DNA of 64,000 bases from Candidatus Bathyarchaeia archaeon (GTDB lineage Archaea > Thermoproteota > Bathyarchaeia > Bathyarchaeales > Bathycorpusculaceae). A model generated the notes under the pieces. The model saw nothing but the letters and a program-made list of their open reading frames with translations, searched no databases and was not told the origin of the DNA. A program made the position numbers and the translations under genes. The stretch covers positions 36,902 through 100,901 of the forward strand of contig JBEKKX010000003.1 in NCBI GenBank assembly GCA_050010515.1. The letters run 5' to 3'. Of the stretch, positions 1 through 18,054 are shown in pieces. The stretch's first letter is position 1. Each line of letters begins with the position of its first letter.

Positions 1-168
1 GTAAAGTTCCGCGTGCTTCACAGAATCCAGCGAGACACCCTTCAGGACGCCTTTAACAGCTGGATTCTTCATGCCAACTAACGCTTTTTCAAGGGAAGCG
101 ACTATTTCGTTTTCAATCACTATTTGATTTTTCAAAAATTCAATGAGATTATTCTTTGGTTTTTCCAT
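1..168 (-). CDS. Ferritin-like/rubrerythrin-type helical protein, 5' part only (runs off the window)
   Basis: Not in the ORF track. ATG at 168 follows a purine-rich RBS and reads MEKPKNNLIEFLKNQIVIENEIVASLEKALVGMKNPAVKGVLKGVSLDSVKHAELY to position 1, with a helical E...DSxKH pattern. It lies directly downstream of the flavodoxin gene. Confidence 0.6.
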   Translation of the reverse strand, partial: MEKPKNNLIEFLKNQIVIENEIVASLEKALVGMKNPAVKGVLKGVSLDSVKHAELY

Positions 169-189
169 TCTTTTCTCCCTTCATTTATG

Positions 190-633
190 TTAAGTCCTGT
201 TCATCAAGTTTTCGGAAATTCTTTTTCCTAAATCCTTACAGGCGCTAAGCATTTTTTCGTCAGGAATATACTTCACAAGTAAAGGTGGTTCAACAACTTG
301 CATCTCAAACTTATTTTTCATAATTTCCAAAATAAGTCTAGGTGCTTCACCGCTCCACCCATAAGAACCAAATGTGGCGCCGACTTTACCCTTCAAACTT
401 ACGCCCTTTACCGCAACTTCCTCAAAAAGCTTCTTGAAATCAATAGGCATCTCATGATGATAAGTAGGTGCCCCAACAACTAAAGCATCAAAGCTACTTA
501 GTTCTTCAGGTTCAATGTGAAAATTTAATTCGACCCTAATCTTATCGTTGATTTGTGCTCCCTCAGCTACTGCTCTCGCCATTTTTTCAGTATTTCCTGT
601 CCTGCTGTAATATAAAACAAGAATTTCCTTCAT
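190..633 (-). CDS. Flavodoxin-domain protein
   Basis: YYSRTGNTEKMA FMN-phosphate loop; GAPTY and FGSYGWSGEA motifs. Confidence 0.9.
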   Translation of the reverse strand: MKEILVLYYSRTGNTEKMARAVAEGAQINDKIRVELNFHIEPEELSSFDALVVGAPTYHHEMPIDFKKLFEEVAVKGVSLKGKVGATFGSYGWSGEAPRLILEIMKNKFEMQVVEPPLLVKYIPDEKMLSACKDLGKRISENLMNRT

Positions 634-680
634 AAAACCAAATATAAAATAACCTTATTTCAATATTTGCCTTTCGGTCA

Positions 681-994
681 TTGGTTCTGGAAACTTGGCG
701 TGGGATTTTTTCTCCATGTTTTGGTGGTTTTTGGGGTGGTTTTTTGGGTGGTTTTTTGGTTTAATTTTTAAGTTGCGATTTTGTGGGCGGTGTAAGTTGC
801 GACTTTTTGTTTGTGTTTGGTTGTGTGTATTGTTGGTGTGGTGTTGGCGGGTTTTGCATCCACAGTTGTGTCAACAGCTCAACAAGCAACTATGCACTAC
901 GGCATAGCGTTTCAGTTTTCGAAGGTTTGAAGGTCATGCTTCTTTATCACTTTTTTGGTTCTGGCAACTTGGCGTGGGATTTGTTCTCCATGTT
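681..994. repeat. 40-bp imperfect direct repeat (681-720 and 955-994) flanking a G/T-skewed low-complexity tract
   Basis: ttggttctgg(a/c)aacttggcgtgggattt(t/g)ttctccatgtt with 2 mismatches; 721-760 contains only G and T. Confidence 0.85.
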
Positions 995-1525
995 AATTTT
1001 CGTGGGATAGGTTGCTGCAACGGTTTCTGTTAACTCGGTGTGAGATTTCGGCTTAGACAGGGTATTTGCGTGTGTGCTCAAGCCTACCTCCTAGTCTACT
1101 AGATGCTTCTAATATGCCTCAAATATGATTCAACATAGTTCAACATAGAAATAATGCCCGCACTTTCTACATGAAATAGTGCTTTTTCTGCATGTGAAGA
1201 GTTTGGTTTTGTTGGTTGTTGGCAAGGTTTTAGAGCTTTCCCGAGCTAAGTAGTCTTTAAGGCGGAGTACATAAGCAAAACTGGTTTTGTTCCCTCCATA
1301 AAAGAGAGCGAAATCAAGGAAGGCCACATGAAACCGGTGCGTGCCAAGGGCAAGCCTATTTTGCTGGTACGGCAAGGCGGAAGTTTTTTGGAGTATCAAA
1401 CCGTTGCCCCGCATATTGACTGCTCTTCAAGAATTGAGATATTTTAATAGTAAGGGATATGGCTTAGTCTTTAAGCTTTTAAGTTAAACTACCTTTAAGA
1501 TATACTGGGTTTGGGTGTACATTTA

Positions 1526-3947
1526 ATGCCAATTAAAAAGAGCGAACTTTACAGTTCAATATGGCAGTCTTGTGACGAATTAAGAGGCGGAATGGATGCT
1601 TCCCAATACAAAGATTATGTCCTTGTTTTATTGTTCATGAAGTACGTTTCTGACAGGTATGCTGGAAAAAGCGATGCTTTGATTGAGGTTCCTAAAGGTG
1701 CAAGTTTCGCTGACATGGTTGCCTTAAAAGGCAAGCCTGACATAGGCGATAGAATTAACAAAATTATTGCCAAGCTTGCTGAGGCTAACGAACTAGTGGG
1801 GATTATCACCGTTGCAGACTTTAATGATGATGATAAGCTCGGGGAAGGTAAAGAAATGCAGGAACGCCTTTCTAACCTTATCGCTATTTTTGAAAAACCT
1901 GAGTTGGATTTTAGTAGGAATAGAGCTGATGGAGACGATCTTTTAGGTGACGCTTACGAGTATTTAATGCGCCATTTTGCTACAGAATCAGGTAAGAGCA
2001 AAGGGCAATTTTATACGCCGGCTGAGGTTTCAAGGATAATGGCTAAGGTAATTGGAATTAACAAAGCAGAACGGCAAGATCAAACCGTTTATGACCCAAC
2101 TTGCGGTTCGGGTTCTTTGCTATTGAAGGCTGCAAATGAAACAGAGCATGGTATAACTATCTACGGACAGGAAATGGACTTAGCGACTAGAGGCTTAGCT
2201 AAAATGAACATGATTTTACACAAGAATCCTACCGCTGACATCCAACAGGGAAACACGCTCTCAAAACCGTATTTCAAAAATAAAGATGGGACTCTAAAAA
2301 CCTTTGATTTCGCGGTGGCTAATCCACCTTTTTCAACTAAAGCATGGAGTAACGGTTTTGAACCAGACCATGACATGTTTGGAAGGTTTGAGGGGTTCGG
2401 TATTCCGCCTGCAAAGAATGGCGATTACGCTTTCCTTTTGCACCTGATTAAATCTTTAAAAAGTACTGGCAAGGGTGCTATAATTTTGCCACATGGTGTA
2501 CTTTTTAGGGGCAATTCCGAAGCCAATATAAGGAAAAATCTAATCAAGAGAGGCTACATAAAAGGCATTATAGGCTTGCCAGCTAACTTGTTTTATGGGA
2601 CAGGCATTCCTGCTTGCATTATTTGTAATAGATAAAGAGGATGCTGAAAGCCGAACAGGCGTTTTTATGATAGACGCAAGCAAGGGCTATATTAAAGACG
2701 GAAATAAAAACCGGCTCAGAGAGCAAGATATTCATGAAATTGTAGATGCTTTCAATAACCAAATTGAAGTCCCAAGATACTCACGCATGGTTCCTATAAC
2801 AGAAATCAGCAATCCAAAGAACGATTACAATCTTAACATATCCCGATACATTGATAGTCAAGAAGAAGAGGATCTACAAGACATAGAAGCTCACCTTCTT
2901 GGCGGCATTCCAGCAAAAGACGTTGAAGATTTAGCCGCTTACTGGAGTGTTTGTCCATCTTTAAAGGAAGCGCTCTTTACTCCAAGTGAACGACCGGAAT
3001 ACTTCAACTTAAAGGTCAAAAAAACAAATATCAAATCAACTATTTTTGAAAACTCCGAATTTACTGGCTATTCAAAGAAAGTAGAGTCAACCTTCAACGG
3101 TTGGCAGGAAGAAATAAAGTCATTACTAAACAATTTACAGATCGGTTCCAAACCTAAAGAACTAATCACTATTCTTTCAGAAAAACTCATTTCCTCCTTT
3201 GGCAAGAATGCCCTCATAGACAAATACGATGTCTACCAAAAACTCATGGACTATTGGTTTGAAACAATGCAAGACGACGCCTACTTAATATCAACAAACG
3301 GCTGGAAAGCAGAATTGAACGTTACTAAAAACAGTAAGGGCAAAGACACCGAATGGACTTGCGACCTAATACCAAAAAAAGTCCTGATTGCCAAGTTTTT
3401 CGTTAAGGCGCAGGAAACAATAAACGACCTTATGGTAGAAGCTGAAACAATAGGTCAGCAAATGGAAACCTTAAAAGAGGAAAACACTGGAGAAGACGAC
3501 CTATTTGCAGAGGTAAAAAATGATGCTGACAAGATCGCTAAACCAGATCTTATCAAGAGGATAAGAAACATAAACGCAAAAAGTGAGTTTGTTGATGAAC
3601 TCAAAGTTTTGGAGGAATACTTGGGGCTAATACAAAAGAATGCGGAAATCAACAGCAAAATAAAAAGTGTCGAATTAGACCTTGACAAAAAATTGCAAAT
3701 TAAATGCAAAAACTTAACCCTTGAGGAAACCAAGTCGCTGGTAGTTGAAGATAAATGGCTAAAATCAATGCATGACTCTGTAAAGAACGAAGTCGAAAGA
3801 ATCTCCCAAAAACTTGCAGGTAGAATAAAAGAGCTTGCAGAACGGTATGAATCACCCATGCCGAAATTGACCAAAGAAGTTGAGGAGCACTCCAAAAATG
3901 TTGATAATCACCTAAGAAACATGGGTTTTGAATGGGTTTGCCAATAA
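1526..3947 (+). pseudogene. hsdM: Type I R-M methyltransferase HsdM, split by a 1-bp insertion near 2621-2624 (pseudogene or assembly error)
   Basis: ORF1 has DPTCGSG and NPPF and ends GIPACII-CNR*. ORF2 continues VIDKEDAE. Removing one T from ATT ATT T GTA ATA GAT AAA restores a single 806-aa frame. Confidence 0.9.
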
Positions 3948-5203
3948 TAGAAAAAGGGTACAACAAGACGGAGATAGGTACAATCCCTGAAGATTGGACC
4001 CTGAAGAAACTGAAAGATATTTTGTTATCTACACAACTGGGTGGCAACTATCAAAATAGTGAAGAAGAAACGCCCTACCCATTGATGAAAATGGGGAATA
4101 TTGAAAGGGGAAATATTAACCTGGATAAAATTGAATATATAAAACAAAATGTCAAGCCGTCTGAAAGAGACAAACTAAATTTTGGAGACATTTTGTTCAA
4201 CACAAGAAATACATTGGAATTGGTGGGAAAAGTCGCAATATGGAGAGATGAGCTGCCGATAGCGTATTTCAATTCCAATTTAATGAGGTTGAAATTTAAT
4301 ATCGATGTTTCCAACTTTTTTATGAATTATGTTTTTAACTCTAAAAGCTTGCTTACTCAATTAAAGTCCATAGCGACTGGAACTACGAGCGTCGGCGCGA
4401 TCTATACACGAGATCTGTTTGGTATACAAATTCCACTTCCTGAATTAGAAGAACAATCCGCTATAGCTCAAGTCCTCTCAGACGCGGACGACCTGATCGA
4501 ATCTCTTGACAAGCTTATCACAAAGAAGAAGCTCATTAAGCAGGCTGCAATGCAGGAACTCCTCACAAGTAAGAAAAGATTGTCAGGTTTTTCTGAAAGG
4601 TGGGCAATCAAAAAGCTTGGAAAGATCGGATATTTTAAGGGAGGCAGCGGATTTCCTCTTAAATACCAGAAATCTTCAGAAGGCACTTTTCCTTTTTATA
4701 AAGTATCAGATATGAATAATAAAGGCAACATTATTTTCATGTCTACTTCTAACAATTACATTTCTGAATATGTAGTAAAGAAAATTGGAGCTACTATTTT
4801 TCCAAAAAACTCCATTATTTTTGCAAAAATTGGTGCAGCAATATTCCTTGAAAGAAAAAGGATACTTTCAACAAATAGCTGTATAGATAATAATATGATG
4901 GGTTTTATAGTCGATAAACATCAAGCAAATTACAGGTTTATTTACTATAAACTAATTCAAACTAATTTTGGCAAGCTTTCAAGTACAACAGCGTTGCCAT
5001 CTTTAAATGGAAACGAACTTGGAGAATTGGATACTTTCTTACCGACTGATTTAAGGGAGCAGGAAGAAATCGCTAGAATTATCTCTGATATGGATGGGGC
5101 GCTTGAGGCTCTTGAGCGAAAGAGGGATAAGTACAAACAATTAAAAGTAGGCTTGATGCAACAGCTATTAACAGGAAGAATTCGGTTAAAATGGAAAAGC
5201 TGA
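3932..5203 (+). CDS. hsdS: Type I R-M specificity subunit
   Basis: IPEDW start, two TRDs, EQxxIA...L helices and MQxLLTG-type repeats. Confidence 0.95.
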   Translation: MGLPIIEKGYNKTEIGTIPEDWTLKKLKDILLSTQLGGNYQNSEEETPYPLMKMGNIERGNINLDKIEYIKQNVKPSERDKLNFGDILFNTRNTLELVGKVAIWRDELPIAYFNSNLMRLKFNIDVSNFFMNYVFNSKSLLTQLKSIATGTTSVGAIYTRDLFGIQIPLPELEEQSAIAQVLSDADDLIESLDKLITKKKLIKQAAMQELLTSKKRLSGFSERWAIKKLGKIGYFKGGSGFPLKYQKSSEGTFPFYKVSDMNNKGNIIFMSTSNNYISEYVVKKIGATIFPKNSIIFAKIGAAIFLERKRILSTNSCIDNNMMGFIVDKHQANYRFIYYKLIQTNFGKLSSTTALPSLNGNELGELDTFLPTDLREQEEIARIISDMDGALEALERKRDKYKQLKVGLMQQLLTGRIRLKWKS

Positions 5204-8200
5204 TTGTCGGGCAAGCTGAAAGGAAAACTCAGGAAAGAATAATTAAACTATTTTCAGGTAAACTGTTGGGGTACTCTTATCTCGGTAATTGGGAGGATCG
5301 TGAGAATAGCAACATAGAAGAAGAGTATCTAATCAAGTTCCTCAAGAAGCAAGGTTACAATGATAATCTAATTAAAAAAGCCCTTTTTGAATTACAGCAA
5401 GTTGCTTCTAATCAAAACAAGGGACTATATGATATTAACAAAGAAGTCTACAGTCTTTTAAGATATGGCATTCAAGTAAAAGATAACATTGGGGAAACTA
5501 AACAAACCGTTTGGCTAATAGACTGGAATAACAAATTAAACAATGATTTCTACATAGCTGAGGAAGTGACTGTTAGAGGCGAACATGATAAGCGCCCCGA
5601 TATAGTCTTGTACGTTAATGGGGTAGCAGTGGCTGTTTTGGAGCTAAAAAGAAGCACGATCTCAGTATCCCAAGGCATAAGGCAAAACCTCGATAACCAA
5701 AAGCAGATTTTCATAAAACAGTTCTTTGCAACAATCCAGCTTGTTATGGCTGGAAATGATACCGAAGGCTTGAGCTATGCAACGACTGAAACCCCTGAAA
5801 AATACTATCTCAAATGGAAAGAGCATTCTAAAATAAAAAACAAGCTTGAAAAAGACTTATCCTTGCTTTGTAGCAAGGAACGCCTCTTAGAAATAATTCA
5901 TGATTTCATAGTCTTTGATTTTGGAGTCAAAAAGATCTGCCGACACAACCAATACTTCGGAGTTAAGGCGTGTCAAGCGTACCTAAAGAGAAGGAAAGGC
6001 GGCATAATTTGGCACACTCAAGGGAGCGGCAAAAGCCTAATTATGATTTGGCTTGCCAAATGGATAAGAGAAAACATAACCGACTCGCGGGTTTTAATAA
6101 TTACTGACCGGGAAGAACTCGACAGCCAGATTGAAAATTTCTTCAAAGGAGTCGACGAGCAAATTTACCGGACAGAAAGTGGAAAAGACTTAATCCAACA
6201 ACTCATGAATGCTAAGCCATGGCTTATGTGTTCCCTCATCCACAAATTCGGAACAAAAAAACAACAAAGCGAAGAACAAGACTTAGAGGAATATATTCAG
6301 GAAATAATGAATAATCTTCCAACTAATTTCAAGCCAAAAGGCGACCTGTATGTTTTTGTCGATGAATGTCACAGAACTCAATCAGGAAAATTACATGGAG
6401 CAATGAAAGGTATCATTCCTAACGCGATCTTCATCGGCTTTACCGGAACACCACTATTAAAAAAAGACAAGAAAACAAGCCGACAAGTGTTTGGCGACTA
6501 CATTCATACCTACAAGTACAACGAAGCCGTATCCGATAACGTAGTTTTAGATTTACAGTATGAGGCAAGAGAAGTAGATCAAAGGATAACTTCTCAAGAA
6601 AAAATAGACCAGTGGTTTGAAGCAAAGACAAGAGGGCTGACAGAGTATGCAAAGGCCGAATTGAAGACGAAATGGGGTACTATGCAAAAAGTCCTCAGTT
6701 CCCAACCGCGGTTGAATAGAATAGTCGCAGACATAATGTTTGACATGGAAACCAAAAACCGGTTGCTAAGCGGTAGAGGTAACGCAATGCTTGTTTCAGG
6801 TAGTATATACCAAGCCTGTCAATACTATGAACTGTTCCAAAATAACGGTCTTAAAAAATGCGCAATAATAACCTCTTATTCAGGTGACATAGACCTAATT
6901 AAGGGTGAAAGCACCGGAGAAGACGATGAGACAGATAACATATTCAAATATGAAACATACCAAAAAATGATCGCTTACTATGAAGGTATTTACCCTGAAA
7001 TCAAAACCAAGGGCTTTGAAGAAGTAATAAAAGAAAAATTCGTAAAAGAACCCGGCCAGATGAAACTTCTAATTGTAGTTGATAAGCTCCTTACTGGTTT
7101 TGATGCCCCACCTGCAACTTACTTGTACATCGATAAAAGCATGCAGGATCATGGTCTTTTCCAAGCAATCTGCCGAGTTAACAGACTCGACGGCGAAGAC
7201 AAAGACTACGGCTATATAATTGACTACAAGGACCTATTCAAAAGCCTCAGCCAAGCAGTAAAAGATTACACTACAGGAGCGTTTAGCGGATTTGACAAAG
7301 AAGATGTTGAGGGCCTGCTTAAAGATAGACTGAAAACTGGAAAAGAGAATTTAGATTCAGCCCTTGAAGGCATCAAGGTTCTCTGCGAACCCGTAAAACC
7401 ACCCAAAGATTCTTCAGCATATATCGAATATTTCTGCGGCAATACAGAAAAACCGGAGGAATTAGCCGCCACTGAACAAAAAAGAATATCTCTCTACAAA
7501 CTAACCTCAAAACTATTACGATCATACGTAAACATTGCCAATGAAATGAAAGAAGCGGGCTACAGCCAGAAAGAAACAGAAAAAATAAAGCAAAATGTAA
7601 GCAACTTTGAAAACATTAGAAGCGAAATCAAGTTAGCAAGTCATGATTACATCGATTTGAAAGCTTACGAACCTGCAATGCGCCATTTAATAGATTCTTA
7701 TATTGATGCAGATGAAAGCAAAACAGTAACTGCGTTTGATGATTTAACGCTCATAGACCTGATAGTCAATAAAGGCGTAGACGCAATCGATTCTCTTCCC
7801 AAAGGGATCAAAGAAAACAAAAATGCCGTTGCAGAAACAATTGAAAATAACGTGCGAAGACTAATCATTGAAGAGAAACCGACAAATCCAAAATATTTTG
7901 AAAAAATGTCAGTTTTACTTGATGAACTGATTAGGGAGAGAAAACAAAACGCTGTAGAATACGCCAACTACTTGAAAAGAATAGTGAATATTGTTAGAAG
8001 AGTAAAGAACAGCTCATTTGTCGATACGTACCCAAAGACAATCAATACAAAAGCCAAAAAAGCACTTTACGATAATTTAGAAAACAACGAAGAGCTTGCT
8101 CTAAAAGTTAATGAGCATATTGAGACGGAAAAGTCTGACGGCTGGCGAGGAAGCCGTATTAAAGAAAAACAGGTAAGAATTGCAATCAAAAACGCTTTAG

Positions 8201-8274
8201 CCGAATTCGGAATAAGCGATGAAGCTAAAATAGATGCAGTCCTAGAATTGGTGAAGAATCAAAATGAATACTAA
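5191..8274 (+). CDS. hsdR: Type I restriction endonuclease subunit R
   Basis: RPDIVLYVNG..ELK nuclease motif; HTQGSGKS, DECHR, FTGTP, LLTGFDAP and QAICRVNR helicase motifs. Confidence 0.97.
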   Translation: MEKLIVGQAERKTQERIIKLFSGKLLGYSYLGNWEDRENSNIEEEYLIKFLKKQGYNDNLIKKALFELQQVASNQNKGLYDINKEVYSLLRYGIQVKDNIGETKQTVWLIDWNNKLNNDFYIAEEVTVRGEHDKRPDIVLYVNGVAVAVLELKRSTISVSQGIRQNLDNQKQIFIKQFFATIQLVMAGNDTEGLSYATTETPEKYYLKWKEHSKIKNKLEKDLSLLCSKERLLEIIHDFIVFDFGVKKICRHNQYFGVKACQAYLKRRKGGIIWHTQGSGKSLIMIWLAKWIRENITDSRVLIITDREELDSQIENFFKGVDEQIYRTESGKDLIQQLMNAKPWLMCSLIHKFGTKKQQSEEQDLEEYIQEIMNNLPTNFKPKGDLYVFVDECHRTQSGKLHGAMKGIIPNAIFIGFTGTPLLKKDKKTSRQVFGDYIHTYKYNEAVSDNVVLDLQYEAREVDQRITSQEKIDQWFEAKTRGLTEYAKAELKTKWGTMQKVLSSQPRLNRIVADIMFDMETKNRLLSGRGNAMLVSGSIYQACQYYELFQNNGLKKCAIITSYSGDIDLIKGESTGEDDETDNIFKYETYQKMIAYYEGIYPEIKTKGFEEVIKEKFVKEPGQMKLLIVVDKLLTGFDAPPATYLYIDKSMQDHGLFQAICRVNRLDGEDKDYGYIIDYKDLFKSLSQAVKDYTTGAFSGFDKEDVEGLLKDRLKTGKENLDSALEGIKVLCEPVKPPKDSSAYIEYFCGNTEKPEELAATEQKRISLYKLTSKLLRSYVNIANEMKEAGYSQKETEKIKQNVSNFENIRSEIKLASHDYIDLKAYEPAMRHLIDSYIDADESKTVTAFDDLTLIDLIVNKGVDAIDSLPKGIKENKNAVAETIENNVRRLIIEEKPTNPKYFEKMSVLLDELIRERKQNAVEYANYLKRIVNIVRRVKNSSFVDTYPKTINTKAKKALYDNLENNEELALKVNEHIETEKSDGWRGSRIKEKQVRIAIKNALAEFGISDEAKIDAVLELVKNQNEY

Positions 8275-9010
8275 CACAAGCAATACAGAAATTTGCAATT
8301 TAGAGGTTCAAATAGTTAAGAAAGACATAAAAAACATACATTTGGGCGTTTATCCTCCCGATGGTAAGATAAGAGTCGCAGTTCCAATTCAAACAACCGA
8401 TGAAAAAATACGGTTATTAATTAATTCAAAAATATCTTGGATAAAAAGACAACAATCTAAATTTCTTGAACAGGAACGGCAATCCAAAAGAGAATATGTC
8501 TCTGGGGAAAGCCATTTCTTCATGGGAAATAGGTATCTATTGACCGTAATTAACTCAAACAGCCCGCCTAGAGTCGAGATAAAAAGAAAAAAACGTATAG
8601 ACATGTATGTTAAGCCACAGACAACTCTCAAAAAGAAAGAGCAATTAATGAATGCTTTCTATCGTTCTGAGCTTAAAAAAGAAACTCCCCCATTGATTGA
8701 GAAATGGGAAAAAATTATGGGTATAACCGTTAAGGAATTTAAAATCAAGAAAATGAAAACAAAGTGGGGAACCTGCAGCCCTAAAAACCAAAGAATATGG
8801 ATAAATCTGGAACTAGCAAAAAAACCAAGACATTGTTTAGAATATGTTTTAGTTCATGAAATGACTCATTTGATCGAAAAGAAACATACCGACCAGTTTA
8901 ACTCTTTAATGTACTTCTTCATACCACAAGGCGCTCAGTATAAACAAGAATTAAATAACGATATCTTGGCTTATTCAAAGTGGAACAATCTAACAGAACC
9001 CAGTCATTAA
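8264..9010 (+). CDS. YgjP/DUF45-like (M48/SprT-type) zinc metallopeptidase, usual hsdR neighbour
   Basis: KWGTCS and VHEMTH (HExxH) motifs; overlaps the hsdR stop. Confidence 0.9.
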   Translation: MNTNTSNTEICNLEVQIVKKDIKNIHLGVYPPDGKIRVAVPIQTTDEKIRLLINSKISWIKRQQSKFLEQERQSKREYVSGESHFFMGNRYLLTVINSNSPPRVEIKRKKRIDMYVKPQTTLKKKEQLMNAFYRSELKKETPPLIEKWEKIMGITVKEFKIKKMKTKWGTCSPKNQRIWINLELAKKPRHCLEYVLVHEMTHLIEKKHTDQFNSLMYFFIPQGAQYKQELNNDILAYSKWNNLTEPSH

Positions 9011-9043
9011 AACAAGAAAATAAAACTATAAGAAAAAAAAGCT

Positions 9044-9253
9044 TTATTCACGCCTCTTTCCTCTGCTTTCTCCGCCTTTCCTTCCTATTTCCCTGTAGAA
9101 TTCGGAACCGCGCTCCTCAGCTACTTTTTCGCCGCCTTTCCTACCGATCTCTCTGTAAAATTGTGGACCTCTTTCTCGAGCCACTTTTTCGCCGCCTTTT
9201 CTTCCAGCTTCTTCACGTGTCATCTTCCTTTTTTCTTCACTTTTAACTACCAA
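9044..9253 (-). CDS. KGG-repeat / GsiB / Em-like hydrophilin
   Basis: MTREEAGRKGG plus two RGxxFYREIGRKGG units; GGAGGTGA lies 6 nt before the TTG. Confidence 0.9.
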   Translation of the reverse strand: MVVKSEEKRKMTREEAGRKGGEKVARERGPQFYREIGRKGGEKVAEERGSEFYREIGRKGGESRGKRRE

Positions 9254-9314
9254 AATTATTCACCTCCCTTTATTTCCTCGAAAAAGGCTGTCTTGTTATC
9301 TACTCAAGGATAGC

Positions 9315-9349
9315 CTTTAAGCGTGTGTGGTTATCAAAAAGCAATCACA
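9315..9349 (-). promoter_or_regulatory. TATA box plus 24-bp pseudo-palindrome, copy 1
   Basis: Sense strand reads TGTGATTGC-N6-ATAACCACA-N5-TTAAAG. Confidence 0.65.
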
Positions 9350-9449
9350 AACCTACTTGGCGAGCTAGTTAACCACAGTAATCTCTATTTTTCAAAATAG
9401 GAAACTAACGCCAAGAAATTAAATTAAAGAAAACGGAATGTTTAGTTAG

Positions 9450-9734
9450 TTATTCTATTTTCCCTATTTCTTTTGTTATATCTATTGGCGATTTATAGGT
9501 TTTATCCGGCAGTTTGTTTAATAAATCCATTACATCGTCTGGGGCATCTTTATCTTGTGCTTTGTCGACCAAGTTCTTTTTTTCTGCTGGGTAATGTATG
9601 CCAGCAAGATATTTTTCCACTATAGCTGGGCTAACGTGACCAGATTTTCCGCTTCTATTTGTGTATTGTCGTCGTGCCTCTCTACCTTGACCTATGCCTA
9701 CGCGCCTACTTGTTTGAACTTCTTCTCTACTCGT
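9450..9734 (-). CDS. DUF2795-family protein with apparent ACG start (missing from the ORF track)
   Basis: Reads (M)SREEVQTSRRVGIGQGREARRQYTNRSGKSGHVSPAIVEKYLAGIHYPAEKKNLVDKAQDKDAPDDVMDLLNKLPDKTYKSPIDITKEIGKIE*, with the LxGxxYPAxKxxL signature. GGAGGTGA is at 9741-9748. Confidence 0.8.
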   Translation of the reverse strand, partial: TSREEVQTSRRVGIGQGREARRQYTNRSGKSGHVSPAIVEKYLAGIHYPAEKKNLVDKAQDKDAPDDVMDLLNKLPDKTYKSPIDITKEIGKIE

Positions 9735-9795
9735 TATCCTTCACCTCCATACTCTTAAACGAGTTAACTCGAAAAATAAAAAACATGCTTACCGT

Positions 9796-9966
9796 TTATT
9801 CTTCTCCGTGCTCTTTTCCTTCCTCAATAAGTTTTCGAACTTTTAGTCCACTTTTGCTACTAATCTCACTGTAAAATTCAGATCCATGAGTCTCAGACGT
9901 CTTTTCTCCACCCATCCGACCAGCCTCCGCAACAGTCATCTTTCCCTTCTTCCTCGATTCACTCAA
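9796..9966 (-). CDS. KGG/Em-like hydrophilin (56 aa)
   Basis: KGKMTVAEAGRMGG...HGSEFYSEI; GGAGGTGA lies 5 nt before the TTG at 9966. Confidence 0.85.
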   Translation of the reverse strand: MSESRKKGKMTVAEAGRMGGEKTSETHGSEFYSEISSKSGLKVRKLIEEGKEHGEE

Positions 9967-10057
9967 ACACATCACCTCCAAAAAAGTATGTTCCCGCTTT
10001 TTTGTCAACATTGTCAACACTTAATTGCTTTCTTAATTTTCTAGCCTGAAACAAAAC

Positions 10058-10092
10058 TTTTAAACATATGTGGCTGTCTTAGCACAGTAACA
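10058..10092 (-). promoter_or_regulatory. TATA box plus 24-bp pseudo-palindrome, copy 2
   Basis: Sense strand reads TGTTACTGT-N6-ACAGCCACA-N5-TTAAAA. Confidence 0.75.
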
Positions 10093-10214
10093 ACTGGAAG
10101 GAGCTTTTTTTAGGTCAAAAATACAATTTAGACTATAAATTAAGTCAAAACTCAAACGTTGAAAAATTTTTGGATCAGCTTTTCAAATTAAAACAAGGTT
10201 AATTGCAGTTTTTT

Positions 10215-10409
10215 CTATTCTTCTTCGTGTGCTTTTCCTGCTTCAATAAGTTTACGGACTCTTTGTCCACCTTTCGGTCCGCCTATTTTTCCACCCTTGC
10301 GGCCTATTTCGCTATAGAATTCTTCTCCGTGGGTTTCAGCTGTTTTTAGTCCGCCTTTCCTTCCGGCTTCTTCAACCGTCATTTTACCTTTTTTCTTTTC
10401 TCTTGACAA
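10215..10409 (-). CDS. KGG/Em-like hydrophilin (64 aa)
   Basis: MTVEEAGRKGG...HGEEFYSEIGRKGG; GGAGGTGA lies 6 nt before the TTG. Confidence 0.9.
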   Translation of the reverse strand: MSREKKKGKMTVEEAGRKGGLKTAETHGEEFYSEIGRKGGKIGGPKGGQRVRKLIEAGKAHEEE

Positions 10410-10488
10410 TACCCTTCACCTCCATTAAAAAAGCGTTTTGATATCTAAAGAAGCTGAAACTAACAAGTAATTACTAAAATAAGGTTTT

Positions 10489-10806
10489 TTATTCTTCTTC
10501 ATGTTCTTTGCCCACTTGAATTAGTTTTCGAACTCTTTGCCCACCACGGTGACCTGCTTCTTCAAGGCTTGTTTTTCCCATAGCTTCACTTGTACCTTCA
10601 TGCTGCTTGGCCCTCTCAGATCCACCTTTGCTGCCTATCTCACTGTAAAATTCTGGGCCGCGCTCTTGAGAAACTTTCTCGCCGCCTTTACGACCGATTT
10701 CCTCATAAAACGCTCGCCCATGAGTTTGAGCGGTTTTTTCTCCACCTTTCCTTCCAGCCTCAGCAACAGTCATCTTGCCTTTTCTGTTTTCTTCACGCAT
10801 ACTCAA
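10489..10806 (-). CDS. KGG/Em-like hydrophilin (about 105 aa)
   Basis: MTVAEAGRKGG, FYEEIGRKGG, FYSEIGSKGG and EEAGHRGG repeats; SD precedes TTG 10806 (alternative ATG 10800). Confidence 0.9.
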   Translation of the reverse strand: MSMREENRKGKMTVAEAGRKGGEKTAQTHGRAFYEEIGRKGGEKVSQERGPEFYSEIGSKGGSERAKQHEGTSEAMGKTSLEEAGHRGGQRVRKLIQVGKEHEEE

Positions 10807-10864
10807 AAAATTCACCTCCTATTAAACAACGGAAAAGTTAACGGTATTAGAGCCGAATGACCGC

Positions 10865-10899
10865 TCATAAACTTATGTGGTTGTGGCATAACAGTAACA
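10865..10899 (-). promoter_or_regulatory. TATA box plus 24-bp pseudo-palindrome, copy 3
   Basis: Sense strand reads TGTTACTGT-N6-ACAACCACA-N5-TTATGA. Confidence 0.75.
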
Positions 10900-11044
10900 T
10901 GCCAACTAAGCAAAATGGAAGATTATTTCATATGAAAAAATACACAAAAAACAGCTTACAACATGAATATTCAATGCCAAATGGATTCATAAGTTAATTT
11001 AAATATCTCGGACAGGTCAACTTTATAATCATTGGGGAACCTGA

Positions 11045-13037: not shown

Positions 13038-15443
13038 ATGAGGAAACACAAGTGGATGCTAATCATTCTCATTTCCCTTATTCTAATTCAAACATCATAC
13101 AGCATGTCGGTAGCCTCATGCAGCAACGCTATTTCCAGCACCGACAACTGGACGATGTTCCGTAATGACCCAGGCCACAGCGGCACCACAACTGGTAACA
13201 GTCCAACGAATTCCGCCAAACTCTTGTGGAATTTCACAACAATGCAAGGTGTTGTATCTTCCCCCGCAGTAGCTAACGGCTACGTTTTCGTAGGTTCCAA
13301 TGAAGGGGCTGTTTACTGTCTCAACTCCTCCAACGGCGAACTAGTATGGTACTACCCAACTGGAAGTGCAGTGGCGTCGTCGCCTGCCATCGATAACGGG
13401 CGTGTCTACATAGGCTCCTACGATGGCAACGTTTATGCTTTGAACGCTACAAGCGGCGCAAAACTCTGGAATTCCACTATCGGCAGCAGTGTTGAGGCGT
13501 CTCCTGGCAGTGTTTATTCGTCTCCTGCTGTTGTCGGTGGCGTAGTCTACGTAGGCTCCTACGATGGCAACGTTTATGCTTTGAACGCTACAAGCGGCGC
13601 AAAACTCTGGAATTCCACTATCGGCAGCAGTGTTGAGTCGTCTCCTGCTGTCTCAGATGGCGTAGTCTACATTGCCTCTAACTTTTTTGTTTACGCTCTT
13701 AATGCGTCTACAGGTAACGAAATATGGAACCACCACACCGGAAGCACTATCTCTTCTCCTGCCGTGTACAATGGCTATGTCTACATAGGCTCATACGATG
13801 GTTACGTTTGTGGTTTGAATGCTTCCACAGGCACCCAGATTTGGAAATATCAAACCCAAGATTCAGTGGATTCTTCCCCAGCTGTCGCCTATGGATGCGT
13901 TTACGTAGGCTCTGAGGACAACAACGTTTATTGTCTAAACGCTTCAACCGGCAGTAAAATATGGCAGAGCCCAACTGGATATTGGGTCTGGTCTTCACCT
14001 GCAGTTGCAGGCGGCAACGTGTATGTGGGCTCTGAAGACTACAGCATTTATTGTCTTAATGCTTCTACAGGAGCAAAGGAATGGAGTTACGAGACTGGAA
14101 ATTTTGTGGATTCTTCACCAGCCATTATAAACAATACCCTATACGTGGGTTCTGATGATAATCATATCTACGCTTTTGCCTTATTCAATTCGACTGTTGA
14201 AACCGTACCTTTGCAATCTACCAGCTCTTTAGCGTGGACTACGATTGCGTTTGATGTGATTGCAGGTGCCGTAATGGCCGTGATTGTTTTTGCAGTCGTA
14301 CTCTTTGTTCGCTCGACCAGGCGGGCTAAGCGAAACGCTGAAGCCGCAAATATTTCTGGTCGAAATGTGTCTTGGTTTTCAGCACACACCGACGCCCTTT
14401 GTGTTTTGGCAATTCTGGCTTTTTCAACAATATTCTTCATTAATATAGGAAATGGACATCTGTCAGCTGCCGATGAGCAAACATACTCTCAATGGGCATT
14501 CCACATGGTTAAAACTGGAGACTACCTGACCCCTTGGGCTTTTGGCGGTATTTTTTTTGCAGGTAAGCCGCCTCTTAGCATTTGGCTGATGTCTCTTGCT
14601 TACCAGGTCTTTGGCGTTAACAACTTCGCGTCAAGGTTTTTTAGTGCTGTATTCGGCACCTTGTCCCTAGTTCTTATCTTCTATTTAGGAAAGAAACTTT
14701 ATAACGGCTATGTAGGATTTCTGTCGGCGCTAGTTTTAGGCACACTTACAACCTTCTATGAGTTTGCAAGACTCGCCATGACAGACGTTCCCTTAGTCTT
14801 CTTCGTTCTGGGCAGCATATACTTTTTTGTTTTGAGCGAAAAAAGCGAAAAAACAACCCGATATGCAGCTTTAAGCGGCCTATTTTTTGGTTTGGCATTA
14901 ATGACAAAACAGATTGAAGCCTTGCTAATTCTCCTAATCATCTTCGCTTATCTCATCGCAACACGGAAAAGCATCAGGTTTCTATTCACAAAACACTTTA
15001 CCCTTTTTTGGGGAATCGGCCTTCTCGTCTTTTCTCCCTGGCTAATCTACATGAACGCTCGTTTTGGATCACAATTTTGGTATTGGTATTTTGTTTATGA
15101 CGACATTACGCGGACAGTTGGTACTGTTGAGAGCCATGTCGGAAGTTACCTCTACTATTTCAGCTACTTAGCTAATAATGAGAACTTGCTTTGGGTAATA
15201 CTGCTTCCTTTTTCGGCAGGGCTTTGCGCATTCAATGCGGTTATCAAGCGCTTAAAAGGAGACACCATGATTCTCTTGTGGATGACAATTGTGCTCTTAG
15301 TATTCACTTTAGCTCAAACAAAACTTTTCTGGTATATTCTGCCGGCTTTTCCAGCTTTCGCCATAGCCATAAGCAGCTTTCTATATCAACTATCAAAGAA
15401 AATATTTCAACTATCAAAAAAAATAAAACTTTCCGCACGCTAA
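13038..15443 (+). CDS. Secreted PQQ/BamB-like 8-blade beta-propeller fused to an ArnT/PMT-like (GT-C) membrane glycosyltransferase, copy 1
   Basis: Signal peptide; eight SSPAV..VYVGS.D..VY.LNA.TG..W repeats; TM helix; then AADEQTY..GDYLTP..KPPL..MTD..MTK..WYILP. Confidence 0.9.
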   Translation: MRKHKWMLIILISLILIQTSYSMSVASCSNAISSTDNWTMFRNDPGHSGTTTGNSPTNSAKLLWNFTTMQGVVSSPAVANGYVFVGSNEGAVYCLNSSNGELVWYYPTGSAVASSPAIDNGRVYIGSYDGNVYALNATSGAKLWNSTIGSSVEASPGSVYSSPAVVGGVVYVGSYDGNVYALNATSGAKLWNSTIGSSVESSPAVSDGVVYIASNFFVYALNASTGNEIWNHHTGSTISSPAVYNGYVYIGSYDGYVCGLNASTGTQIWKYQTQDSVDSSPAVAYGCVYVGSEDNNVYCLNASTGSKIWQSPTGYWVWSSPAVAGGNVYVGSEDYSIYCLNASTGAKEWSYETGNFVDSSPAIINNTLYVGSDDNHIYAFALFNSTVETVPLQSTSSLAWTTIAFDVIAGAVMAVIVFAVVLFVRSTRRAKRNAEAANISGRNVSWFSAHTDALCVLAILAFSTIFFINIGNGHLSAADEQTYSQWAFHMVKTGDYLTPWAFGGIFFAGKPPLSIWLMSLAYQVFGVNNFASRFFSAVFGTLSLVLIFYLGKKLYNGYVGFLSALVLGTLTTFYEFARLAMTDVPLVFFVLGSIYFFVLSEKSEKTTRYAALSGLFFGLALMTKQIEALLILLIIFAYLIATRKSIRFLFTKHFTLFWGIGLLVFSPWLIYMNARFGSQFWYWYFVYDDITRTVGTVESHVGSYLYYFSYLANNENLLWVILLPFSAGLCAFNAVIKRLKGDTMILLWMTIVLLVFTLAQTKLFWYILPAFPAFAIAISSFLYQLSKKIFQLSKKIKLSAR
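13411..13637 (+). repeat. 86-bp exact intragenic direct repeat (13411-13496 = 13552-13637)
   Basis: taggctcctacgatggc...cggcagcagtgttgag occurs twice, offset by 141 nt. Confidence 0.9.
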
Positions 15444-15589: not shown

Positions 15590-15663
15590 CCCAAACAAAT
15601 CCCGCTTGAAGTTCAATTAGTTTAATATTCTAATTTTACATGTGGTCGATTGTAAGGATGGCA

Positions 15664-18054
15664 ATGCGAAAACTCAACTGGCTACTGATCAGTCTCATTT
15701 GTCTTATTCTAGTTCAACCAATTTGCATGTCGGTAGCTTCAGGTAGCAACTCCAGTTCCAGCACCAACGACTGGACAATGTTCCGTCAAGATCCAAGTCA
15801 CATTGGCTCAGTAACTGGAAACAGCTCAATCAATTCCGCTAAACTCTTGTGGAATTACACAACAGGCAGAATGGTACAGTCTTCCCCTGCAGTAGCGGAA
15901 GGCTATGTTTTCGTAGGCTCTAGGGATAGCCAAGTTTACTGTCTCAACGCCTCCAATGGTGAACCAGTCTGGAAATACCCAACTGGAAGTGAAGTGTGGT
16001 CGTCACCTGCCATCTATAATGGGCGTGTCTACGTAGGCGCAGACGACGGCTACGTTTACTGTCTAAACATTACCACTGGAATGCCTCTTTGGAAATCATT
16101 CATCGGGGGTCCAGTGCGGTCTTCGCCTACAGTTGTGGATGGCTACGTCTATATAGGTTCAGGAGAGCAAAATGTTTACGATCTTAACGCTACAGACGGA
16201 ACCACAATATGGATTTTCCCAACTTTATACCCAGTGGATTCATCGCCAGCCGTTTCAAATGGCGTAGTATACGTTGCCAATAGCGACGATTTCATTTACG
16301 CTATTAATGCTTCTACAGGCAGCCAGATATGGAGCCACCAAATTAGAAGCTCTAGTTCTTCTCCTGCCGTGTACAATGGGTATGTCTACATAGGCTCATA
16401 CGATGGTTACGTTTATGGTTTGAATGCTTCCACTGGCGCCCAGATTTGGAAGTACCAAACGGCAGACGAAGTGTACTCTTCCCCAGCTGTCGCTTACGGA
16501 TGCGTTTACGTAGGCTCCGAGGACAATAACGTTTATTGTTTAAACGCTTCAACCGGCAGTAAAATATGGCAGAGCCCGACCGGGTATTGGGTCACATCTT
16601 CACCAGCAGTTGCAGACGGCAACGTATACGTCGACTCCGAAGACTACAACATCTACTGCCTCAATGCCACTACAGGAGCCAAGGAATGGAGTTACCAAAC
16701 CGGAAATTTTGTAGAATCCTCTCCAGCAATTGCGAACGACACCCTCTACGTTGGTTCAGACGATTGCAAGGTCTACGCTTTAGCCTTAAACAATTCAACT
16801 GCTCAAACCCAACTTTCACAATCTACCAATTCTTTACCATGGACTACCATTGCGTTTGACACCATTGCGTGCGCGATAGGAGCAGTGATTATTTTTGCAT
16901 TAGCACGAACCTTTTACTCCAGTAGACGGCAGAAGCGAAATGCTGAATCAAGCGATATTCCGAACCAAAAATACTCATGGTTCAAAGCGCACTCTGACAC
17001 GGTTTTTATTTTGGCAATTCTGGCCTTTTCGATGATATTCTTCGCTAATCTTGGAAGCGGGGTTCTTCAGGCAGCCGACGAGCAAACGTACTCTCAATGG
17101 GCATACCACATGTTTAAAACTGGAGACTACCTGACCCCTTGGGCTGACGGCGCCGTGTCTTTCGTGATAGGCAAGCCGCCGCTTTTGATGTGGCTGATGT
17201 CTCTTGCCTACCAGGTCTTCGGCGTTAACAACTTTGCATCACGGATTTGGACCGCTGGATTCGGCGCTTTATCGTTAGTTCTTGTCTTCTATTTGGGAAA
17301 GAAACTTTACAATCGGTATGTTGGGTTCATGTCGGCGCTTGTTTTAGGCACATTCATAACTTATTACGTGTTTGCAAGATACGCCATGACTGACGTCCCG
17401 CTGGTTTGCTTCATTTTGGGAATCATATACTTTTTTGTTTTAAGCGAGGAAAAAGAAAATGCTAATCGATATGCAGTTTTAAGCGGCCTGTTTTTTGGCT
17501 TGGCGTTAATGACCAAGCAGATCGCTGCCCTGTTAATTCCGCTAATCATCTTTGCATATTTAATCACGACAAAGAAAAGCCTGCGGTTTCTCTTCACAAA
17601 ACACTTTACCCTTTTCTGGGGAGCTGGGCTTCTGCTGTTTTCGCCCTGGTTGATCTACATGGCTGCCCGTTTCGGGTCACAGTTTTGGCAGTGGTACTTC
17701 GTTTATGCTGACCTTACACGCTCAGCCAGCCCCGTTGAGGGCCACTTAGCGGGTTACCTTTTCTACTTTAACTACATAGCTAATCACGAAAACTGGCTTT
17801 GGGTAGTATTGTTGCCTTTCGCGGCTGGGCTTTGCGGGTTCAACACGGTTGTTAAGCGCTTAAAGGGAGACACGTTAATTTTCTTATGGATGGCGATCGT
17901 GCTGTTAGTATTCACTTTGGCGCAAACAAAAATTTACTGGTACATCCTGCCAGCTTTCCCAGCTTTCGCCATCGCCATAAGCAGCCTTCTGTACGAAGTA
18001 TCAAAGAAAATACTACGTCACAAGCTAACTTCAGCTAAACTCACTGGCGGTTGA
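15664..18054 (+). CDS. Beta-propeller/ArnT-like glycosyltransferase fusion, copy 2
   Basis: Collinear paralog of 13038-15443; an identical 21-bp promoter block occurs at 12980-13000 and 15608-15628. Confidence 0.9.
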   Translation: MRKLNWLLISLICLILVQPICMSVASGSNSSSSTNDWTMFRQDPSHIGSVTGNSSINSAKLLWNYTTGRMVQSSPAVAEGYVFVGSRDSQVYCLNASNGEPVWKYPTGSEVWSSPAIYNGRVYVGADDGYVYCLNITTGMPLWKSFIGGPVRSSPTVVDGYVYIGSGEQNVYDLNATDGTTIWIFPTLYPVDSSPAVSNGVVYVANSDDFIYAINASTGSQIWSHQIRSSSSSPAVYNGYVYIGSYDGYVYGLNASTGAQIWKYQTADEVYSSPAVAYGCVYVGSEDNNVYCLNASTGSKIWQSPTGYWVTSSPAVADGNVYVDSEDYNIYCLNATTGAKEWSYQTGNFVESSPAIANDTLYVGSDDCKVYALALNNSTAQTQLSQSTNSLPWTTIAFDTIACAIGAVIIFALARTFYSSRRQKRNAESSDIPNQKYSWFKAHSDTVFILAILAFSMIFFANLGSGVLQAADEQTYSQWAYHMFKTGDYLTPWADGAVSFVIGKPPLLMWLMSLAYQVFGVNNFASRIWTAGFGALSLVLVFYLGKKLYNRYVGFMSALVLGTFITYYVFARYAMTDVPLVCFILGIIYFFVLSEEKENANRYAVLSGLFFGLALMTKQIAALLIPLIIFAYLITTKKSLRFLFTKHFTLFWGAGLLLFSPWLIYMAARFGSQFWQWYFVYADLTRSASPVEGHLAGYLFYFNYIANHENWLWVVLLPFAAGLCGFNTVVKRLKGDTLIFLWMAIVLLVFTLAQTKIYWYILPAFPAFAIAISSLLYEVSKKILRHKLTSAKLTGG

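Follow-up and report, generated by a model that had tools for sequence, protein, structure and literature searches.

The window analysed here is a 64,000-nucleotide stretch of contig JBEKKX010000003.1 (assembly GCA_050010515.1) from Candidatus Bathyarchaeia archaeon. It carries five small genes on the minus strand between positions 9044 and 10815, and upstream of each of the three transcription units that they form lies a 24-bp pseudo-palindrome with a TATA-like box at a fixed distance. According to Pfam four of the genes encode KGG-repeat proteins (PF10685, with a weak similarity to LEA_5) and one encodes a DUF2795 protein. The unit behind palindrome copy 3 (P3) consists of the genes 10806 to 10489 and 10409 to 10215, that behind copy 2 (P2) of the gene 9966 to 9796 and the DUF2795 gene, and that behind copy 1 (P1) of the gene 9253 to 9044. 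In each unit a Shine-Dalgarno sequence, GGAGGTGA, stands ahead of a TTG start. Archaeal marker genes in the window are those for F420-dependent methylene-H4MPT dehydrogenase, RtcB, archease, L7Ae and DUF2095. In the direction of transcription the features are:

10876..10899, minus strand: palindrome copy 3 (P3), TGTTACTGT-TATGCC-ACAACCACA; exact match; orthologous promoter class of 17 members including the window
10864..10871, minus strand: TATA-like octamer of P3, TTTATGAG; TTA at 10868-10870, 5 nt past the palindrome
10489..10806, minus strand: KGG-repeat protein of 105 aa, first gene of the P3 unit; Pfam KGG E 2.8e-12; TTG start 5 nt past GGAGGTGA
10215..10409, minus strand: KGG-repeat protein of 64 aa, second gene of the P3 unit; Pfam KGG E 4.4e-6; the 79-nt gap before the gene is motif-free
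10069..10092, minus strand: palindrome copy 2 (P2), TGTTACTGT-GCTAAG-ACAGCCACA; exact match; orthologous promoter class of 18 members including the window
10057..10064, minus strand: TATA-like octamer of P2, TTTAAAAG; TTA at 10061-10063
9796..9966, minus strand: short KGG-like protein of 56 aa, first gene of the P2 unit; Pfam KGG E 5.3e-4, 20.7 bits; probable TTG start after GGAGGTGA
9450..9734, minus strand: DUF2795 protein, second gene of the P2 unit; Pfam DUF2795 E 8.5e-18
9326..9349, minus strand: palindrome copy 1 (P1), TGTGATTGC-TTTTTG-ATAACCACA; exact match; orthologous promoters in relatives
9314..9321, minus strand: TATA-like octamer of P1, CTTAAAGG; TTA at 9318-9320
9044..9253, minus strand: KGG-repeat protein of 69 aa, gene of the P1 unit; Pfam KGG E 1.1e-14; TTG start 6 nt past GGAGGTGA

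The four KGG proteins score 54.7, 47.1, 27.3 and 20.7 bits against the Pfam model, all above its cut-off of 20.4, and the short 56-aa protein groups with the KGG proteins found 3' of the sites in relatives. No ATG, GTG or TTG lies near the GGAGGTGA of the DUF2795 gene. An ACG about 6 nt past this Shine-Dalgarno sequence is kept in the window and in eight relatives (9732-9748, minus strand), and probably serves as a non-canonical start codon.

The original prediction had described the three palindromes, their common spacing from a TTA(A/T) box and the lack of conservation around them. All its statements about the sequence were correct as exact matches: copies 1, 2 and 3 are followed by the five nucleotides CACGC, TATGT and TAAGT and then by TTAA, TTAA and TTAT, respectively. 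We infer the TTA-containing octamers to be the TATA boxes. In the 64 kb the degenerate 24-mer occurs exactly three times, at the three promoters and nowhere else. If up to three mismatches are allowed six matches are obtained, of which five stem from the three sites (sites 2 and 3 are each matched on both strands) and the sixth lies inside hsdR at 5510-5533; 100 shuffles of the window gave a mean of 0.92 such matches and never reached six. A relaxed consensus of 32 nt, again with up to three mismatches, retrieved no fourth promoter in the window, and the internal gaps at 10410-10488 and 9738-9795 are motif-free in the exact, the mismatch and the relaxed-consensus scans, as had been noted before. 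When the three promoters are compared in pairs, mean identity reaches 0.81 across the 18 half-site positions, whereas it drops to 0.28 within the N6 spacer and to 0.33 both in the upstream 40 nt and between +14 and +70; flanks and spacers are indeed unconserved among the copies.

To investigate the occurrence of the element outside the window we scanned species-representative genomes (596 Gb, both strands) for the pattern TGTNAYTGY-N6-AYANCCACA-N5-TTA, which holds 35 bits. At least 131 stretches were found, compared to approximately 35 chance matches estimated from equal base frequencies. Among the matches listed 105 record titles are Bathyarchaeota, Bathyarchaeia or Bathyarchaeum, eight are other archaeal titles (uncultured archaeon twice, Thermoproteota twice, Nitrososphaeria, MCG, one Methanocella and one euryarchaeote) and 18 are bacterial; 112 archaeal-titled loci among them come from 70 assemblies. 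There are 130 unique sites outside the window, and the 114 archaeal ones with enough flank represent 65 distinct sequence contexts. The DNA of the window itself is absent from the scan loci, which we number with the prefix L; L002 and L019, at about 95% identity to the window, possess the same three promoters. A set of 58 non-overlapping loci (952 kb) contains 85 copies of a relaxed 16-base core, while shuffled sequences contained 1.07 on average and 3 at most. Both comparisons place the element above background, in line with the enrichment that the original prediction implied.

Conservation upstream of orthologous genes, which the original prediction had also implied, is seen in the orthologous promoter sets of P2 (18) and P3 (17), the window included: their footprints agree, with half-sites, CCACATA and the TTTA box kept while the upstream sequence drifts, and in the P3 class the half-sites, CCACATA and TTTATGAG are conserved. 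The features of a phylogenetic footprint are thereby present, as the motif is kept before orthologues despite the divergence of the flanks and also stands before unrelated genes.

The architecture of the composite was counted in the fetched archaeal DNA together with the window (1.24 Mb, partly overlapping). The scan pattern prescribed TTA at +5 as well as A at position 5 and CC at positions 20-21. Any statistics on the sites that it selected are therefore partly circular, and the independent tests are those on 26 to 35 unselected sites. The consensus of the 24-bp inverted repeat is TGTKRYTGY-N6-RCARYCACA, and TGTKAYTGY-N6-ACARCCACA if only sites of the scanned form are regarded. TTA follows at +5 in all 117 matches to the 24-mer alone, and in 123 of 131 palindromes from the archaeal loci and the window. 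The relaxed core TGT...TG-N8-CA...ACA yields 132 unique palindromes, 106 of which fit the scan pattern and 26 do not. Among these 26 palindromes, not selected for TTA, it is found at +5 in 18 (chance rate 0.039, P ~5e-20). Half-site spacers of N4, N5, N7 and N8 gave no match each in the fetched DNA; only N6 occurs.

Both halves belong to the element. The proximal word A.A.CCACA has 307 occurrences with a bimodal distribution of the distal half: all 122 occurrences with a distal half of at least 8/9 have TTA at +5, compared to a single one of the 185 with a distal half of at most 7/9. Put the other way round, 122 of the 123 words with TTA at +5 possess the distal half, even in promoters that serve one direction only. 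In a context-weighted profile, numbered from the first base of the palindrome, the positions left free by the scan that carry information are 4 (G or T), 17 (C, 0.94), 19 (purine), 25 (T or A), 26 (A, 0.82), 29 (pyrimidine) and 33 (A or T, no C or G); no information is found in the N6 spacer or in the 20 nt upstream. Symmetry, a fixed half-site spacing, a need for both halves and an uninformative spacer are thus combined as in a dyad operator. Start codons follow at a median of 54 nt past TTA, mostly at 30-80 nt, and a weak enrichment of A is seen about 22 nt past TTA (position 54, A 0.50). Nine palindromes are flanked by a TATA-like box at +5 on both sides. Such two-sided cases, among them L027 1144-1167, L062 10009-10032, L042, L092, L099 and L125, appear to be one operator shared by two divergent promoters.

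The original description of the motif, correct in its sequence statements, overlooked a systematic difference between the two halves at position 5. We examined this in 35 sites that would have been fetched whatever their own sequence. The combinations at positions 5/20 are A/C in 13, G/T in 16, G/C in 2, A/T in 3 and A/A in 1 (Fisher's test on the first four classes, P = 7e-5). A site is thus made of an A-type half (TGTKA) and a G-type half (TGTKG), and either of the two may be the one next to the TATA box. The orthologue of P3 in L019 (position 6438) differs from window 10876-10899 at positions 5 and 20 only, by two transitions, and the flanks are identical. As the G5/T20 form lies outside the A5-type pattern, the genome scan covered one of two approximately equally common forms. 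A heterodimer would fit the A/G asymmetry, as would an asymmetric dimer or stabilising selection that acts on total affinity.

The genes downstream were surveyed for 134 relaxed sites, 14 of them without a callable open reading frame (ORF), and the first ORF was named from Pfam. KGG-type proteins, including a mini form of about 50 aa, follow 48 sites and a 62-aa C2H2 zinc-finger protein follows 8. PRC-barrel, cytochrome-b5-like, cupin, Cys-rich 80-aa and MsrA proteins were found at 3 sites each; Fe/Mn superoxide dismutase (SOD), HTH_45 regulators, lysine-rich 45-50-aa proteins with no Pfam match, ABC ATPases, radical-SAM/DUF3463 and a membrane protein were found at 2 sites each. Singletons include fasciclin-DUF1508, an F420-type oxidoreductase, DUF116 and DUF5752. 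Later genes of the units include rubrerythrin as second ORF after the SOD gene (L027), AhpC after an unknown protein (L035) and DUF2795 in the window. Altogether the motif precedes at least 15 unrelated protein families in at least 70 assemblies. Its association with stress genes, proposed for the window, extends beyond it, as KGG, MsrA, SOD and AhpC units are among the downstream genes by Pfam, and the gene set is reminiscent of a regulon for general or oxidative stress. In L067 the promoter of the C2H2 mini-protein, which bears the motif, is immediately preceded by a catalase gene and the gene of a PerR-like regulator of the FUR family (7754-9786).

The core promoters next to the element deviate from what is seen at a housekeeping gene. 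CCACA takes the place that CGAAA, a pentamer resembling a B recognition element (BRE), has in the rpl7ae promoter (CGAAA-gcttc-TTAAATAA), as had been observed before, and motif-bearing promoters show no purine-rich BRE. The TATA boxes appear non-optimal, with G at positions 34 and 36. Both features suggest a low basal promoter activity. The tRNA promoters were too few to derive a BRE consensus (17 unique upstream regions, mostly one orthologous set), and when 608 upstream regions were aligned on their YTTAWD boxes no clear consensus emerged either, with only a faint enrichment of A at -4/-3. With its end 5 bp short of TTA, the palindrome takes up the 5' portion of the BRE position and does not touch the TATA box.

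Taken as a sequence element, the 24-bp inverted repeat is very probably the operator of a transcription factor that serves a conserved regulon. The dyad, the two obligatory halves, the free spacer and the sequence-invariant triplets form the signature of a dimeric DNA-binding protein. That this factor controls a stress regulon throughout the Bathyarchaeia, and does so by activation, is a reading to which we give as much belief as doubt. According to it a dimeric, sequence-specific factor would bind the repeat with its proximal half abutting the BRE position, would contact TFB/TBP from this fixed position and so recruit them to intrinsically weak core promoters, and would turn the genes on under stress, in the window the KGG-KGG, KGG-DUF2795 and KGG units. 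Transcription would be expected to start about 21-25 nt past TTA, near 10845, 10038 and 9295. What the sequences themselves show is the motif, its rigid spacings, its conservation and enrichment and the genes that follow it; that a protein binds, whether it activates, to which stress it responds and where transcripts begin are inferences from them. Activation by stereospecific recruitment of TFB/TBP is favoured by the near-invariant distance, the bidirectional cases and the non-optimal core elements. The dimeric activator abutting the BRE, as originally proposed, finds support in the dyad, the obligatory halves and the rigid spacing to the TATA box, whereas the activating sign is a matter of interpretation.

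Several points weigh against this reading. The argument from weak core promoters is based on one housekeeping promoter, rpl7ae, and a few tRNA promoters; part of the statistics carries the circularity described above; the stress role of most members is taken from family names; and a proximal half over the BRE position equally suits a repressor that excludes TFB. Each candidate regulator family, considered further below, is weakened by the fact that TrmB and HTH_45 genes adjoin sites in different genomes.

The repressor is the alternative that survives best. A dimeric repressor on the same operator would keep TFB off the BRE position until stress, e.g. by oxidation of the repressor, releases it. 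Archaeal oxidative-stress genes are commonly derepressed by redox-sensing repressors (MsvR, and SurR in part), and MsrA, SOD/rubrerythrin and AhpC are among the targets here. The proximal half-site stands where rpl7ae has CGAAA, and in L027, L005 and L024 a divergent regulator gene begins 10-30 nt away, a distance that puts the palindrome in a repressing position for that gene. A steric repressor would, however, require neither the avoidance of the TATA box nor an invariant distance of 5 bp, yet none of the 123 palindromes with TTA at +5 overlaps the TATA box and the distance hardly varies. At the target genes no instance was seen over the TATA box or the transcription start site, the usual position of a repressor, and the non-optimal TATA boxes without a purine-rich BRE point to a low basal activity in need of help rather than of blocking. 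We consider repression quite possible on this evidence, but would not expect it.

An alternative general factor, i.e. a TFB or TBP paralogue that reads an extended BRE in the manner of an alternative sigma-factor promoter, was the second option of the original prediction. It would account for the rigid spacing to the TATA box and for the conserved bases that reach as far as the box (CCACA-W-A, with A at position 26), and the gene content is like that of general stress regulons of the sigma-B/EcfG type. The obligatory distal half speaks against it: it is present in 122 of the 123 A.A.CCACA words followed by TTA, and the single helix-turn-helix of a TFB would not need it. A polar BRE-like element would also not permit the A-type and G-type halves to occur in either orientation, nine sites serve TATA boxes on both sides, and the neighbours that were annotated (111 of 200 neighbour-cluster representatives and others, a partial annotation) included no gene for a TFB or TBP. 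We therefore regard this option as improbable.

A structure of the nucleic acid in place of an operator, either a cruciform or an RNA hairpin in a transcript initiated upstream, would draw on the 6-7 of 9 stem positions that are able to pair and on the alternation of A/C and G/T at positions 5/20, which are wobble-like combinations in RNA. Stem positions 1-3, 7 and 8, though, are sequence-invariant without compensatory change, and positions 6/19 are independent (C/G 36, T/A 16, T/G 22 and C/A 26, equal to the product of the marginals). Watson-Crick pairs are found in only 6 of 112 cores at 5/20 and in 32 of 112 at 4/21; furthermore, the element lies upstream of the TATA-like box and Rfam gave no match in window 9000-11000. 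The lack of compensatory covariation at 6/19 and 5/20 led us to reject a hairpin or cruciform, which we consider highly improbable. That the three copies are non-functional leftovers of a tandem duplication of KGG genes with their promoters has a negligible chance of being correct: the downstream genes of the window are paralogous, but flank and spacer identity is at background level compared to the half-sites, and the same element precedes the many unrelated families counted above, which agrees with the selection that had originally been argued from the diverged flanks.

Returning to the dimeric activator, three families and one small protein are leads to the factor, and no candidate is decisive. 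TrmB-family genes adjoin sites in six loci (L004, L062, L027, L005, L068 and L123), a number to which chance may contribute in 1 Mb. The genes of L027 and L005 run divergently, and their start codons are at distances of 10 and 30 nt to the palindrome; those of L004 and L062 lie inside islands of 5-6 and 4 palindromes, respectively, within about 11-12 kb. The nearest solved structure to one TrmB-family neighbour is TrmBL2. HTH_45 genes, homologous to Sso10a by their nearest solved structure, occur at three loci, with the site upstream in L072 and L130 and a divergent arrangement at 25 nt in L024. A 350-aa protein with multiple winged helix-turn-helix domains is syntenic with the KGG cluster in 11 loci, and the C2H2 mini-protein is also a candidate. 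None of these candidate regulators (TrmB-family, HTH_45, multi-winged-helix, C2H2) is present in the window.

Archaeal upstream activator sites next to the BRE are known for Ptr2 of Methanocaldococcus jannaschii and TFB-RF1 of Pyrococcus furiosus. The element shares with them the factor site directly upstream of BRE/TATA, the poor BRE, the dyad and the presumed recruitment of TBP/TFB. It differs by its unrelated sequence, by a near-invariant 5-bp distance to TATA over more than 100 promoters, and by a large class-wide regulon in place of one or two promoters. Factor sites adjoining BRE/TATA are thus known in principle; the present one appears to be new, as do its breadth and its rigid geometry. 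The TrmB/TrmBL1 regulon of the Thermococcales uses the palindromic TGM motif TATCAC-N5-GTGATA with sites on either side of the TATA box. Common to both cases is a palindromic promoter motif kept across an archaeal lineage, and TrmB-family genes adjoin sites in the six loci named above; half-sites, orientation and the N6/24-bp geometry are different, the targets are stress genes instead of sugar metabolism, and the sites described here are always upstream of TATA. The redox regulators MsvR and SurR bind TTCG-N7-9-CGAA and GTT-N3-AAC at sites that overlap the core promoter or the transcription start in variable positions. Antioxidant genes under palindromic sites near BRE/TATA are found with them as well as here, but these motifs do not match and the position is fixed in our case.

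Three known operator types were compared with the element and rejected. The half-sites and spacing of a TrmB-type operator (TGM or TACT-N3-AGTA) differ in a by-eye comparison with the consensus sequences. In a CRP/FNR-type site, TGTGA-N6-TCACA, the pentamers are 6 bp apart; here the TGTGA-like and YCACA pentamers are 14 bp apart. The LexA SOS box of bacteria, CTGT-N8-ACAG, has another spacing than the CTGT-N6-ACAG of copy 2, positions 6/19 vary freely and the window is archaeal.

Bacterial general stress regulons are those of sigma-B in Bacillus and EcfG/PhyR in Alphaproteobacteria, which are marked by a sigma-factor -35/-10 signature. Archaea are without sigma factors, and we know of no described archaeal counterpart of these regulons. 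The regulon proposed here is similar in content, with KGG/GsiB-type, PRC-barrel and DUF1508 proteins, superoxide dismutase, peroxiredoxin and methionine sulfoxide reductase under one shared promoter signature; the signature itself is not a -35/-10 promoter but a dyad operator at a fixed distance from an archaeal TATA box. This leads to a wider reading, which we put forward tentatively and consider unlikely rather than likely to hold as a whole. In it the palindrome-TATA composite would be the signature of an archaeal general stress response, a counterpart of sigma-B/EcfG promoters, with a dedicated factor docked on TFB/TBP in one fixed geometry. The operator would be obligatorily heterotypic, its halves held so by paired substitutions between close relatives, and such A/G halves would suggest a heterodimer or an intrinsically asymmetric dimer instead of an ordinary symmetric one. 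If this were true, a single short DNA word would allow stress-regulated genes to be read from any Bathyarchaeia genome or metatranscriptome.

Bathyarchaeia are widespread and almost entirely uncultured. In full-text literature searches, judged on listings and the openings of abstracts, neither the motif nor a stress regulon of Bathyarchaeia was found to be described, and we found no paper on transcription control in Bathyarchaeia. The 32-nt composite marks dozens of promoters per lineage and so provides a testable handle. The predicted regulon joins LEA/KGG-type hydrophilins with antioxidant enzymes and comes with a short list of candidate regulators, and the rigid geometry between operator and TATA box suits the study of communication between an archaeal factor and TBP/TFB. 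It also offers an annotation route for unknown stress-regulated genes from metagenomes, such as those of the 62-aa C2H2 protein, the Cys-rich 80-aa protein and DUF2795.

Some loci with unexpected titles deserve mention. Six bacterial-titled loci carry promoters and genes of the Bathyarchaeia type (KGG, C2H2 mini-protein, DUF5752), namely L026 and L058 from an Acidoferrum metagenome-assembled genome (MAG), L127 from a Chlamydiota MAG and L050, L073 and L115 from a Sulfotelmatobacter MAG; these are probably mis-binned archaeal contigs. The remaining 12 bacterial-titled loci look like chance matches. Locus L095, titled Methanocella sp. (a 124-kb contig, of which 632 nt were examined), contains a mini-KGG gene with a perfect motif-TATA composite, for which transfer, shared regulation or mis-binning would each be an explanation. 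KGG/LEA-like proteins in Methanocella are among the matters reported in PMC12904285, which bears on this locus.

Two further elements lie around P1. The 5' leader of its gene, window 9270-9313 (GGCTATCCTTGAGTAGATAACAAGACAGCC), stays well conserved among P1 orthologues, distant ones included, and has complementary ends (GGCT...AGCC); it may represent a leader structure or a second control element. Upstream of copy 1 a fused double half-site, ATTACTGTGGTTAAC, lies at 9367-9381 on the minus strand. It is kept in the closest relatives only (L045, L019, L066 and L120) and lost in more distant P1 orthologues; we therefore dropped it as probably non-functional.

The surroundings of the cluster differ between the window and close relatives. 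Window 683-9002, with a type I restriction-modification system (hsdM, hsdS, hsdR) and a YgjP-like metallopeptidase, is an insertion by comparison with them: the flavodoxin gene (window 1-682) is joined straight to the KGG cluster (window 9003 onward) in L002, L019, L065 and L070. Within this insertion hsdM is seemingly split (window 1511-3947). The ORF 1511-2635 corresponds to positions 3-228 of the 311 of the N6_Mtase profile, and the N-terminus of the overlapping ORF 2595-3947 to positions 226-310, which could be due to a frameshift or a fusion. On the other side of the cluster, window 13038-15443 and 15640-18054 hold tandem paralogues, in each of which a PQQ-like beta-propeller is fused to a PMT_2 glycosyltransferase membrane domain.

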